Notes: generated by a model from the sequence alone, not told the origin. A stretch of DNA of 26,202 nucleotides from Candidatus Woesearchaeota archaeon (GCA_016185555.1 JACPNI010000066.1:1-26202), one strand, 5' to 3'. Shown: positions 4,548-10,868, numbered from the stretch's first letter. Numbers and translations: made by a program.

Positions 4548-5261
4548 ATGTCAAGAATCTGGTACAAGAATTATGGATGGAAAAGTAATCCCTTTAATGT
4601 AAGGGCTGATTCTAAGATTTTTGGATTGGATAAAGAAAGAGAGTTGCTAATGAACTATGTTCTTGGAGGAAATGTCTGTTTTATTACTGGACCTACTGGT
4701 GCTGGCAAGACTTCTTTACTTAAGTGGCTTCAGTCAAATATCAAAGGCCACAAAATAATTTATCTCGATTCTAGTGCGACAAATGATTTTTTTAATCTTG
4801 GAAAGCACTTAAAAGACCATAGGAATTTTTTCGAACTTATCTTCCATGATTTTCCAAGAAAAGTGGTTCTGTTGGTTGATGAAGCACATTGTAGTGAGAA
4901 GCATTTGAAAGATGCAATTAAGCTTTATTGGGATAATGCACATGTCAAGTCTGTTGTAGTAGCACAAATTCCCTCACCAAATAATTTTTCAAAGGTTTTC
5001 AGGGCACGTGCAGGGGGAAGAATAATAAGGCTTTCTAACATAAGTACTGAAGTTGCAAATGGAATTGTTGACCTAAGAACCAAAAATAAGAATATATTTG
5101 AAAGAGATGCAATAGAGAGCATGCTTTACATTTCAGATAGGAATCCTAGAAAATTCCTGGAGAATTGTGAGAAAGCTGCAATGAAATTGGCAGGCAAATG
5201 GAATGGGGCTAAATTTTCTAAAGCAGATGTAGAAATTATTTTTAGCCACCACAAAGCTTAA
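4548..5261 (+). CDS. AAA+ family P-loop ATPase
   Basis: Walker A GPTGAGKT, Walker B LLVDEAH, C-terminal NPRKFL sensor-like motif. Confidence 0.85.
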   Translation: MSRIWYKNYGWKSNPFNVRADSKIFGLDKERELLMNYVLGGNVCFITGPTGAGKTSLLKWLQSNIKGHKIIYLDSSATNDFFNLGKHLKDHRNFFELIFHDFPRKVVLLVDEAHCSEKHLKDAIKLYWDNAHVKSVVVAQIPSPNNFSKVFRARAGGRIIRLSNISTEVANGIVDLRTKNKNIFERDAIESMLYISDRNPRKFLENCEKAAMKLAGKWNGAKFSKADVEIIFSHHKA

Positions 5262-5286
5262 AAAAGGCAATTAAAGCTACATTCTT

Positions 5287-5490
5287 ATGGGAAGAGTAAA
5301 AACAATGATGATCAAGAGAAGCGCAAATAAACTTCTCAAAGAATATAAAAGCAGCTTTAATTCTGATTTTAACTACAATAAAAATCAGGTTGTTAAGTTT
5401 GCAGATATAAGATCAAAAAAAATAAAGAATGTGCTAGCTGGTTATATAACAAGATTAATAAAACGGGGCGTACAGTCCAATAAACTCTGA
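5287..5490 (+). CDS. rps17e: 30S ribosomal protein S17e
   Basis: MGRVKT...IKR, DFNYNK, SKKIKNVLAGYITR. Confidence 0.95.
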   Translation: MGRVKTMMIKRSANKLLKEYKSSFNSDFNYNKNQVVKFADIRSKKIKNVLAGYITRLIKRGVQSNKL

Positions 5491-5508
5491 TTGTTTTCTT
5501 ATAAACTA

Positions 5509-5799
5509 TTATTGTTCTTGATTTTGATGCATTACAGCACTTCTGATAATCTCAAAGGATTCAAATTTGCTTAAGTTATAGGTTTTATCTCCTACCCCCA
5601 TATTTATTCGATATTCAGCATCTCGGCTTGATAAGCCTTTAACCTTTAACCCAGAGAAAGGGTTTTCGTGAGAAAGTACTGCTGTTCTACAGTCATAATG
5701 AGTGACAAATCCAACTACTTCAAATTCATATGACTTTAAAGAGAGCAGATCTCCAATGCTTACTCCTTTCAGCTTATTTTCCAATCCTTTCATAGCCAA
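5509..5799 (-). CDS. Hypothetical protein
   Basis: 96-aa ORF fills the gap between rps17e and alba; no recognised motif. Confidence 0.55.
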   Translation of the reverse strand: MAMKGLENKLKGVSIGDLLSLKSYEFEVVGFVTHYDCRTAVLSHENPFSGLKVKGLSSRDAEYRINMGVGDKTYNLSKFESFEIIRSAVMHQNQEQ

Positions 5800-5815
5800 G
5801 CAATGAAGCGGTGTA

Positions 5816-5823
5816 TTTATAAA
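5816..5823. promoter_or_regulatory. TATA box (TTTATAAA) upstream of alba
   Basis: Archaeal TATA consensus 43 nt before the ATG at 5866; GGAGG Shine-Dalgarno at 5852..5856. Confidence 0.55.
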
Positions 5824-5865
5824 CCTTTAGTTGATATTACAGTAGTAATTCGGAGGGTGTTCAAG

Positions 5866-6214
5866 ATGACAGAAACTAACGAAGTGGAACATAAAGAAAG
5901 TCGGGAACGCAGCAACGTTGTGTACGTAGGATCCAAACCTTTTATGAAATTACAATAGTCAAGGCTATTGTAACATCAGTTACGTAACAAGCGTTGTTAT
6001 GCAGTTTACAGTGCAAAATTCAAATGAAGTTATAGTTAAAGCCAGGGGGAGATTTATCAGTCGTGCAGTTGACATAGTTGAAGTAGCCAGAAAAAGATTT
6101 TTGGATAATGCACTTGATCTCGGTGATATTAAACTAGATTCTGAAGATTTTAAAAATCGTGAAGGCAGAGATATCCGGGTTAGTACCATAGAGATAACTT
6201 TAAAAAAGAAATAG
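5866..6214 (+). CDS. alba: DNA/RNA-binding protein Alba, intron-containing: join(5866..5948,5980..6214), 105 aa
   Basis: Exon 1 MTETN...NVVYVGSKPFM; exon 2 YVTSVVMQF...VIVKARGRFISRAVDIVE...VSTIEITL; removing 31 nt rebuilds the codon AA|T (Asn) and the conserved G-x-KP-x-MNYV motif. Confidence 0.9.
5949..5979 (+). other. 31-nt BHB-type intron in the alba coding sequence
   Basis: TATG AA|A TTACAATAG TCAAGG CTATTGTAA CATC AG|T: two 3-nt bulges, 3 of 4 pairs in the central helix, perfect 9-bp stem; contains in-frame TAG at 5956..5958. Confidence 0.85.
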
Positions 6215-6241
6215 TCTTTTATTTTTAAAAAGAGGTAATAG

Positions 6242-7927
6242 ATGCAGGTCTCTATATTTTTTGACATTGTAATCATAATAATATTTGCAGCTTTACTAGC
6301 TAATATAGTAAGATTCTTTAAACAGCCATTAATTCTAGGCTATGTTATTGCAGGTCTGCTTATTGGTCCAAGTTTTTTTTCTTTTATAAAGAACCCGGAA
6401 TATTTGAGCACCTTTTCCGAAATAGGAATTGCTTTTCTTCTATTTATAGTGGGTATGGAGCTGGATTTCAAGAGACTTAAAGAGGTTAGTAATGTAGTTA
6501 TTATTGCAGGTATATTGCAGTCATTATTAACGATGGGTGTAGGGTTCTTTATCGCATCATTCTGGTTGGATATTACCCAGTCAATTTATCTTGGTTTAAT
6601 TGTTGCGTTTTCAAGTACAATGGTTGTCATTAAGCTTATATCAGACAAAGGCCAATTAGACACATTGCATGGAAGGATAGTATTAGGAATTTTGCTGGTC
6701 CAGGATGTAATAGCTGTTATAGCCTTGCCACTGCTTCCAACAATAAATAACTTCTCATACAGTTTGTTTTCAATAGCCTTGTTGAAAGGGATAGGGCTGA
6801 TTGTTTTTGCATTTTTAATGAGCAAATATGTTTTCTATTCTGTATTAAAAGCCACAGCTAAACTGCCAGAGCTTCTTTTTGTAACCGCACTTGCAATCTG
6901 CTTTATATTTGCTTCTTTTGCAGCCATTCTTGGATTTTCAATAGCAATAGGGGCTTTTGTAGCCGGTGTTGCATTAGCATCATTTCCATACAACCTGGAA
7001 ATAGTTGGGAGGATAAAATCACTTAAGGATTTCTTTATCATAATCTTTTTTGTTACCTTAGGAAGTCAGCTTAACTTAAATAATTTTAATTTCAATATAT
7101 ATTTAATAATAGCCTTAATAATAACTGTTTTGCTATTAAAGCCAGTTATTATCTTTGTTATACTGAAATTCTTTAAGTATGGCAATAATACATCGCTTCT
7201 ATCTGGCATGTACTTAGCACAGATTAGCGAGTTTTCTTTGGTAATTGCAGCATTAGGGCAGTCGCTTGGGCATATAACAAAAGAAACATTTACTTTGGTA
7301 ATATTAATCTCCGTATTTACAATTACATTAACTTCTTATTTTGGCCAATATGATAAAAAAATTTATCGGTTATTTTCTGACTTTCTGGTTCCGTTTGAAA
7401 GATATAGTTCAGAAGAGCTTAGAAGACTCCCAAAAGAAATATCAGCACATACGATTTTAATAGGGGCGCACAGGATGGGACTTAATATTATAAAAACCTT
7501 AAAGCAAAAAAATGAAAATTTTATAGTCGTTGATTTTAATCCGGAAGTTATTAGGAAATTAATTAAAATGAATATAAACTGCATATATGGAGATATAAGC
7601 AATATAGATGTTTTAATGCATCTTAACCTCAAAAAAGCTAGGATGGTTATATCAACTGTTCCAAATACACTCGATAATATGCTCTTAATTGAAATAATCC
7701 GGAAAGAGCATAAGGACTGTATTGTAATAGTAAGGTCCTCTTCTGCATTTGAAGCATTAAACCTTTATAAAAAAGGGGCGGATTTTGTAGTTCTGCCTGA
7801 ATTATTGGCTGGGCAAAAGATTTCGGATTATTTAACCCATCTAAATGACAGGGAAATAAAAAAATGGGGTAAAACCTATAAAGACAACCTAGCTAAATCC
7901 ATGAACTATGAAGATGGTATCTGGTAG
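6242..7927 (+). CDS. Kef-type cation:proton antiporter (CPA2) with TrkA-N domain
   Basis: GYVIAGLLIGP, LLFIVGMELD, FSSTMVVIK, LLVQD, GAFVAG; C-terminal Rossmann IGAHRMG, VVDFNPE, IYGD. Confidence 0.93.
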   Translation: MQVSIFFDIVIIIIFAALLANIVRFFKQPLILGYVIAGLLIGPSFFSFIKNPEYLSTFSEIGIAFLLFIVGMELDFKRLKEVSNVVIIAGILQSLLTMGVGFFIASFWLDITQSIYLGLIVAFSSTMVVIKLISDKGQLDTLHGRIVLGILLVQDVIAVIALPLLPTINNFSYSLFSIALLKGIGLIVFAFLMSKYVFYSVLKATAKLPELLFVTALAICFIFASFAAILGFSIAIGAFVAGVALASFPYNLEIVGRIKSLKDFFIIIFFVTLGSQLNLNNFNFNIYLIIALIITVLLLKPVIIFVILKFFKYGNNTSLLSGMYLAQISEFSLVIAALGQSLGHITKETFTLVILISVFTITLTSYFGQYDKKIYRLFSDFLVPFERYSSEELRRLPKEISAHTILIGAHRMGLNIIKTLKQKNENFIVVDFNPEVIRKLIKMNINCIYGDISNIDVLMHLNLKKARMVISTVPNTLDNMLLIEIIRKEHKDCIVIVRSSSAFEALNLYKKGADFVVLPELLAGQKISDYLTHLNDREIKKWGKTYKDNLAKSMNYEDGIW

Positions 7928-9689: not shown

Positions 9690-9711
9690 CTTTTAAGTGG
9701 ACTCGCCGCGA

Positions 9712-9724
9712 TTTTCTTCAAGGA
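9712..9724 (-). other. 13-nt T-loop intron (59/60) of tRNA-Ala(CGC)
   Basis: TTCA AA|T CCTTGA AGAA AA|T; removal restores TTCAAAT loop; 3 of 4 central pairs. Confidence 0.75.
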
Positions 9725-9764
9725 TTTGAACGCGGTGCCTTTCCCGTGCGAGGGGAATGCTCTA

Positions 9765-9786
9765 TTTTCCATATCTTTTGGATATT
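9765..9786 (-). other. 22-nt D-loop intron of tRNA-Ala(CGC)
   Basis: GTCT GG|A ATATC CAAAA GATAT GGAA AA|T; removal gives D loop AGTCTGGTA. Confidence 0.8.
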
Positions 9787-9847
9787 CCAGACTGAGCTAC
9801 GAGCCCAACAAGTTTTAATCAGAATCGCTCTATAAAAGCTTTTTGAA

Positions 9848-10690: not shown

Positions 10691-10777
10691 CTATAAGGAA
10701 GAGAATGTGAACTTACTTATATATTTTTATATGAATTAATATGGACTCGGTGGGATTCGAACCCACGGCCTTCCGCA

Positions 10778-10790
10778 TTACGGTTTTTAT
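10778..10790 (-). other. 13-nt canonical-position (37/38) intron of tRNA-Ala(GGC)
   Basis: TCGG CA|A TAAAAA CCGT AA|T; 3 of 4 central pairs. Confidence 0.8.
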
Positions 10791-10808
10791 TGCCGAGCGG
10801 ACGCTCTA

Positions 10809-10824
10809 TTGTCCAAGCTATTTT
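10809..10824 (-). other. 16-nt D-loop intron of tRNA-Ala(GGC)
   Basis: GTCC AG|A AAATAGCTT GGAC AA|T; perfect 4-bp central helix; same site as in tRNA-Ala(CGC). Confidence 0.8.
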
Positions 10825-10868
10825 CTGGACTGAGCTACGAGCCCATTACATTTTCCATTTCAAAAAAC

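Follow-up and report, generated by a model that had tools for sequence, protein, structure and literature searches.

Archaeal protein-coding genes are treated as free of introns, and the closest described case to the one presented here is the short intron in the cbf5 pre-mRNA of Crenarchaeota, on which Watanabe 2002 and Yoshinari 2006 are also said to have reported. The DNA analysed is a 26,202-nt stretch of Candidatus Woesearchaeota archaeon (GCA_016185555.1, JACPNI010000066.1:1-26202), called the window below, and coordinates are counted from its first letter. The reading frame of alba, the only gene of its kind in the genome assembly, is interrupted in this window by a 31-nt segment (5949-5979), which is very probably a genuine archaeal intron of the bulge-helix-bulge (BHB) type within the coding sequence.

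The cbf5 intron, known from Aeropyrum and Sulfolobus, measures 16-44 bp and has been linked to a hetero-oligomeric form of the tRNA splicing endonuclease EndA (Yokobori 2009, PMC2738675). The alba intron is likewise short, lies in a protein-coding gene, shows patchy gain and loss among relatives and would depend on the tRNA splicing machinery. By contrast, its host gene is alba and its lineage the DPANN Woesearchaeales, and relatives possess a single EndA gene, apparently of the alpha4 type, instead of the hetero-oligomeric enzyme associated with cbf5. Moreover, alba has two insertion sites 4 nt apart, with one relative apparently carrying both introns, and a free-standing LAGLIDADG gene lies beside the intron-bearing alba of relatives, whereas no such partner has been described for cbf5. 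Splicing of cbf5 has been demonstrated experimentally, while that of alba is inferred from sequence. Within the searchable literature, such an intron is described for no archaeal protein-coding gene other than cbf5 (PMC2738675), and reviews and papers up to 2025, among them one each from 2018 and 2025, cite cbf5 alone. No paper describing an alba intron was found in that literature, in line with the original prediction, a reading of the sequence by a model that knew of none. Alba would be a second host gene of the cbf5-type kind.

Archaeal tRNA and rRNA introns of the BHB type, cut by EndA and joined by RtcB, have the same two 3-nt bulges four positions apart and an identical cut rule. The tRNA-Ala introns of the same contig even share the grammar NA/A ... 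AR/U (a slash marks the cut) and often only three of four central pairs. The difference is that the alba intron lies in the coding region of an mRNA, where splicing sets the reading frame and no tRNA body aids recognition. In the eukaryotic HAC1 and XBP1, the endonuclease IRE1 cuts the mRNA at stem-loops, and a tRNA ligase or RtcB joins the exons; the XBP1 intron is 26 nt long. The resemblance to alba (a short mRNA intron, a protein endonuclease acting at stem-loops, a tRNA ligase and a change of reading frame) is an analogy only, as the endonuclease and its recognition motif differ and HAC1/XBP1 is a regulated stress switch.

A last system concerns the spread of introns. Zeng, Bonocora and Shub reportedly described in 2009 collaborative homing, with the free-standing endonuclease gene F-CphI beside the intron-containing psbA of cyanophage S-PM2. 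In relatives of the present organism, too, an endonuclease gene lies beside and not inside the intron, and only with intron-bearing alleles of alba. However, the phage element is a self-splicing group I intron, against a predicted protein-spliced mini-intron in an archaeal chromosome; the window is without an endonuclease gene or a remnant of one, and cleavage by the enzymes of the relatives is only putative.

The interrupted alba gene and its empty site

The frame opened by ATG 5866 encodes MTETNEV...NVVYVGSKPFM, followed by KLQ and a TAG stop codon at 5956-5958, so that it ends after 30 aa as ...NVVYVGSKPFMKLQ. The longest open reading frame (ORF) track contains only the 71-aa C-terminal part of Alba (5999-6214). 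Read from 5981 (YVTSVVMQF...), the downstream frame matches the Pfam family Alba (PF01918) at profile positions 14-65 with an E-value of 3.7e-11, above the curated cut-off; as the match begins at position 14, the first strand of the Alba domain is missing from that frame. Deletion of 5949-5979 joins AA and T to an Asn codon, restores KPFM-N-YVTSVVMQF and yields a 105-aa product. The segment recovered in this way, KPFMNYV, is the most conserved N-terminal motif of Alba. The predicted spliced junction reads ...CCTTTTATGAA/TTACGTAACA, and the junction-spanning stretch of the predicted spliced Alba is PFMNYVTSVVMQF. The parts of the gene are as follows.

5852-5857, + strand: Shine-Dalgarno sequence GGAGGG, 8 nt 5' of the alba ATG at 5866, read from the sequence
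5866-5948, + strand: alba exon 1, 27 codons plus AA, the first two bases of an Asn codon
5915-5928, + strand: exon-1 strand of a putative outer duplex between the exons (5915-5919 with 5990-5994; 5923-5928 with 5981-5986)
5943-5946, + strand: central helix, 5' strand UAUG, in exon 1; three of four positions pair with 5974-5977
5947-5949, + strand: 5' bulge AA/A, predicted cut after 5948
5949-5979, + strand: predicted BHB intron, 31 nt; sole gap against the intron-less L104 allele; present in DNA contigs of four runs
5950-5973, + strand: inner hairpin, a 10-bp stem (5950-5959 with 5964-5973) and a CAAG loop, from the fold
5956-5958, + strand: in-frame TAG in the intron hairpin, terminating translation of the unspliced mRNA at 30 aa
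5974-5977, + strand: central helix, 3' strand CAUC, in the intron; CATCAG is invariant in the related loci L105, L106 and L108
5978-5980, + strand: 3' bulge AG/U, predicted cut after 5979
5980-6214, + strand: alba exon 2, made up of the last base of the Asn codon, 77 codons and a terminal TAG stop at 6212-6214
5287-5490, + strand: ribosomal protein S17e gene rps17e (Pfam PF00833), upstream neighbour of alba, conserved in relatives

A natural intron-less allele is available for comparison. The protein P0001, identified by a protein search, is an uninterrupted 105-aa Alba, 94% identical to exon 2 and one residue off exon 1; the spliced product equals it save a few substitutions and hence comprises a full-length Alba domain. 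The contig encoding P0001, L104, has the gene order of the window (S17e, a small minus-strand ORF, alba and a Na+/H+ exchanger) and is 86.7% identical in DNA to positions 5050-7680 (2.6 kb). Since L104 spans five genes on both strands, it is taken as DNA. Around the break, the alignment holds one gap only, exactly 5949-5979, and the boundaries of the insert are thus independent of the choice of frame. Their match with the gap against a natural intron-less allele is more than coincidence. The alignments of P0001 with solved Alba structures, among them 2z7c and 1h0x, run from end to end (residues 16-105 against 2z7c). Its junction region stands opposite VVYIGKKPVMNYV of 2z7c, and the KP(V/F)MNYV segment is found in all the solved structures compared. 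The original prediction had described the same arrangement: a ribosome-binding site and ATG 5866 opening a frame that stops at TAG 5956 after 30 aa, a 71-aa ORF track, and a 105-aa protein once 5949-5979 is removed. Reading of the sequence, translation and the allele P0001 all agree with it.

The insert belongs to the DNA of the organism. Four groundwater runs of two studies gave independently assembled contigs in which it is present without gaps or joints, one of these contigs representing a variant strain with nearby single-nucleotide polymorphisms. The assembly (801 kb, 136 contigs, 59% complete) contains a single Alba locus. Of the findings that would have spoken against the original prediction, neither DNA without the insert nor an intact second alba was encountered in these contigs and this assembly. 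The Shine-Dalgarno and start codon arrangement of alba is also found in relatives.

Upstream of alba, an orphan ORF on the minus strand (5509-5799, 96 aa) fills the 375-nt spacer to rps17e, and a 94-aa ORF occupies the equivalent place in L104. The 96-aa ORF gave no Pfam match and no homologue among 60 relatives. This spacer is absent from the close relatives L105 and L106.

Shape of the intron and its counterparts in Woesearchaeota

The motif is a BHB in a relaxed form. Two 3-nt bulges face opposite strands, four positions apart, and three of the four positions of the central helix are paired (A5944-U5976, U5945-A5975 and G5946-C5974), with U5943 and C5977 mismatched. A geometry check reproduced the fold that had been proposed at the outset, with both cuts after the second base of a 3-nt bulge across a four-position helix of three pairs. 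In the pre-mRNA, UAUG of exon 1 would pair with CAUC of the intron across the 10-bp intron hairpin and expose the two bulges. EndA would then cut between 5948 and 5949 and between 5979 and 5980, after the second base of each bulge, and RtcB would ligate the exons to form the Asn codon AAU and the 105-aa Alba. Unspliced mRNA would yield a 30-aa peptide only, through the in-frame TAG in the hairpin. The outer exon-exon duplex appears both in the minimum-free-energy fold and in the BHB-constrained fold; as a conserved feature it was rejected, since L105 and L106, the nearest relatives with the intron, do not retain it. A search of Rfam across 5400-6400 gave no match at E <= 5. A self-splicing group I or group II intron was also rejected, since 31 nt is far too short for a ribozyme core and Rfam gave no match. 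No further copies of the hairpin tip, TAGTYAAGGCTA, were found in the genome assembly.

Comparison of alba among relatives, one of the checks suggested with the original prediction, revealed both intron-bearing and intron-less alleles, and the related loci are from Woesearchaeota, in agreement with the DPANN host supposed there. In 14 of the 54 related genomes with alba (family or order level; 15 of 55 when the genome of the window is counted), the gene is interrupted at the same place or 4 nt upstream, and these genomes fall into 12 of 29 families. Interruptions were verified in another 7 of 39 Woesearchaeota loci, among them the complete genome AR20. The related inserts measure 21-33 nt, represent all three phases and occupy two main sites 4 nt apart. 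The site of the window lies within the Asn codon (...ATGAA/intron/TTAY...), with L073 cut 1 nt farther downstream, and the other within the Met codon (...CCTTTTA/intron/TGAAT...). At the Met-codon site, the four positions of the central helix are perfectly paired in each of the eight introns (CUUU with GAAG or AAAG). An in-frame stop codon occurs inside the first five codons of every related intron, as read by eye, unscripted. In the closest intron-bearing relatives, L105, L106 and L108, the intron is likewise 31 nt long and occupies an identical site, and ATGAAA and CATCAG are invariant. Two double compensatory changes distinguish the stem of the window from that of L105 and L106 (C-G to U-A and A-U to G-C).

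The agreement between protein and RNA was scored in 23 introns. The splice sites were set by the protein only, by requiring [KRE][PA][FLV]MNY[VI][TK] across the junction, and the BHB register was scored afterwards over 207 cells, formed by the four-position central helix and the first five pairs of the inner stem; for four loci with equivalent cut positions, the best register was taken. In the register defined by the protein, 180 of the 207 cells pair (87%). Moving the 3' site alone, or the two sites together, by 1-4 nt leaves just 74-110 cells paired (36-53%). The first five inner-stem pairs each exhibit four to six pair types across the 23 introns, and the rule of cutting after the second bulge base holds in all of these (with the register chosen among equivalents in four). 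The comparison indicates that the structure is kept by compensatory changes in homologues.

Both exons are also under purifying selection, as their codon changes show, and the gene is in use. In 22 spliced coding sequences from 22 genomes, the ratio of nonsynonymous to synonymous differences (pN/pS) is 0.17 in the nine codons before the break, with a pS of 0.84, and 0.165 in the 33 codons after it. Although an insert separates it from exon 2 at the DNA level, exon 1 is thus under equal constraint, as would be expected only of two parts that come together in one product.

In the genome G043 (L046 / L098, G043:C20), alba appears to have both introns in tandem, of 32 and 30 nt, with a TGAA micro-exon between them. 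The central helix of the second intron is perfect (UAUG with CAUA) only once the first has been removed, which suggests ordered splicing of the predicted pair. Public entries named 'Alba' of 71-83 aa, for example P0002, P0004, P0029, P0009 and P0018, are probably truncated calls of intron-bearing genes; this was confirmed for P0004 and P0029.

Splicing machinery and competing explanations

The tRNA genes of the window provide controls for the cut rule.

10742-10844, - strand: tRNA-Ala(GGC) with two introns, one in the D-loop (16 nt, 4/4 central pairs) and one at 37/38 (13 nt, 3/4)
9698-9806, - strand: tRNA-Ala(CGC) with two introns, one in the D-loop (22 nt, 3/4 central pairs) and the second in the T loop

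Both genes were parsed by hand and then checked by ARAGORN, which recognises tRNA-Ala(ggc) and tRNA-Ala(cgc) only when both introns of each are removed. Their introns follow the alba rule: the bulges are 3 nt long and four positions apart, and each is cut behind its second base. Two of the four have three of four central pairs with the outermost position mismatched, exactly as in alba. As these tRNA genes are nonfunctional unless the introns are removed, the organism must process substrates of such quality, and an enzyme that does so is implied. The intron calls of ARAGORN itself were rejected as controls, their positions and identities being unreliable (tRNA-Ala(GGC) was called Ser(gga)). In the standard mode, one tRNA-Ala gene was missed and the other miscalled tRNA-Ser(gga); in intron mode, introns were predicted in 9 of the 14 tRNA genes found genome-wide, at approximate positions.

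RtcB was found in the genome assembly. It is represented by two partial matches (contigs C56:2768-3580 and C57:8-760) covering the C-terminal two thirds, both at contig ends, which could be two copies or strain variants. Among 60 relatives, EndA is a single gene in 55, and its ORF in G006, the sole one read, has 183 aa. The enzyme of the relatives looks like the alpha4 type, as judged from these genes. In most relatives, EndA is located on the contig of alba, 1.5-10 kb away. Three same-family relatives, G001, G005 and G009, have it 6-8 kb upstream of alba; the equivalent position here would be just beyond the start of the contig. Loop-bearing alpha4 EndAs have been reported in DPANN lineages with many disrupted tRNA genes (PMC5829648), which fits the picture of an alba intron.

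Restoration of the protein by the ribosome instead of by splicing has to be considered, either as bypassing of the 31 nt in the style of phage T4 gene 60 or as a shift of frame. The hairpin and the stop codon just past the break resemble gene 60 superficially. However, no matched take-off and landing codons restore Met-Asn-Tyr, as ATG/ATC would put Ser in the place of the conserved Asn, and the related inserts differ in sequence, length (21-33 nt), phase and position while the BHB register is kept. Translational bypassing is not known in archaea, and such recoding is judged very improbable. Inactivation of alba by the 31-nt insertion, followed by decay, would account for the broken frame and for the 71-aa fragment given by gene callers. 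Yet this is the sole alba of the genome, and its exon 1 retains a ribosome-binding site, a start codon and a pN/pS of 0.17 over 22 interrupted genes of many families; the structure of the insert covaries, and the interruption persists in 12 families, all of which makes a pseudogene hardly credible.

The gene might also be split, giving a 30-aa N-peptide and a 71-aa truncated Alba from ATG 5999 that are never joined. This second ORF still scores as Alba (E 9.5e-10), but it is missing the first strand, the conserved KP(V/F)MNYV segment and a ribosome-binding site ahead of 5999, and the codons located 5' of its ATG (5981-5998) are conserved in frame as YVTSVV. With a natural intron-less allele encoding one continuous 105-aa protein, this explanation is given very little weight. 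An artefact of assembly or sequencing, or an element excised at the DNA level, is less probable still, to the point of being negligible: no point in its support was found, except that contigs drop rare variants, so that rare excised DNA forms could exist, and against it stand the independent gap-free contigs from four runs and two studies, including the variant strain with its polymorphisms, and homologous inserts in dozens of other assemblies.

The EndA-type BHB intron in the alba of a DPANN archaeon, as originally predicted, is supported by the boundaries of the empty site, the related introns, the register-specific pairing, the selection on exon 1 and the tRNA-Ala controls. Several observations weigh against it. 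The motif is relaxed, with three of four central pairs and no contiguous outer helix beside the 3' bulge, where the adjoining helix is weak (two of four positions pair). In the free RNA, the minimum-free-energy fold is more stable than the BHB conformer by 2.8 kcal/mol, and the ensemble probability of each pair in the central helix is about 2-3%. EndA of the alpha4 type, which the enzyme of the relatives resembles, is described as strict in older literature. EndA itself was not found in the 59%-complete assembly by a Pfam family search or by tblastn with a same-family EndA; a weak tblastn match on contig C27 was rejected as a repeat protein. A search for RNA runs with this sequence listed none. 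RNA cleavage, ligation and the identities of the enzymes are inferred. As for the energy difference, the BHB conformers of the relatives lie 0-7.3 kcal/mol above their minimum-free-energy folds, a range within which the 2.8 kcal/mol of the window is typical.

An adjacent endonuclease gene and the spread of the intron

In five intron-bearing relatives, an ORF of ~310 aa is located between S17e and alba, with an N-terminal segment like a helix-turn-helix (HTH) and two LAGLIDADG motifs (PF14528). Remnants of such a gene were identified at three further intron-bearing loci, and none of the ~62 intron-less loci with comparable flanks has a LAGLIDADG ORF beside alba. The window contains neither gene nor remnant: tblastn with the proteins of the five relatives gave chance-level matches only, the rps17e-alba spacer included. 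In L095 (G044) and L097 (G033), the LAGLIDADG ORF continues in frame through exon 1 of alba and ends at the stop codon of the intron.

One genus allows a direct comparison: G022 (L096) has both the endonuclease gene and the intron and G049 (L028) has neither, with flanks 90-92% identical. The point at which homology between the two restarts is the very first base of alba exon 2; by eye, exon 1, with ~77% identity, is more diverged than the flanks. From this alignment, endonuclease gene, exon 1 and intron look like a cassette transferred jointly. LAGLIDADG enzymes leave a 4-nt 3' overhang, and the two intron sites, 4 nt apart, flank TGAA, which has the size of this overhang.

A tentative reading, which is possible without being the one we would favour, is that the alba mini-intron represents the immunity half of a selfish pair with a free-standing HTH-LAGLIDADG endonuclease, the window showing an intron left behind after loss of the endonuclease. 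The enzyme would cut intron-less alba within the conserved sequence ...TTY-A/TGAA/T-TAY...; once an intron occupies one of the two sites, the target would no longer exist, and the carrier would be protected while the cassette converts empty alleles. Because close strains lack the intron, and because in relatives it is paired with an adjacent LAGLIDADG gene, it is probably a passenger, whether selfish or neutral, and no regulator. The original prediction had added that splicing could act as an on/off control of alba. This part was not supported: the analysis gave no evidence of such control, and the existence of a close relative that lacks the intron speaks against any indispensable role in regulation.

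Gene callers systematically truncate intron-bearing alba. How such introns arise and spread can be tested on the natural pairs of intron-plus and intron-less alleles and on the relatives that carry the endonuclease gene. If the selfish pair is real, homing endonucleases would be what drives protein-spliced introns into further protein-coding genes of archaea. If the alba intron is what it very probably is, the gene of a core chromatin- and RNA-binding protein would be interrupted in a different superphylum, in about a quarter of the sampled Woesearchaeales. Splicing of mRNA by the tRNA machinery would then be no crenarchaeal oddity, and its proposed link to a hetero-oligomeric EndA would not be general.
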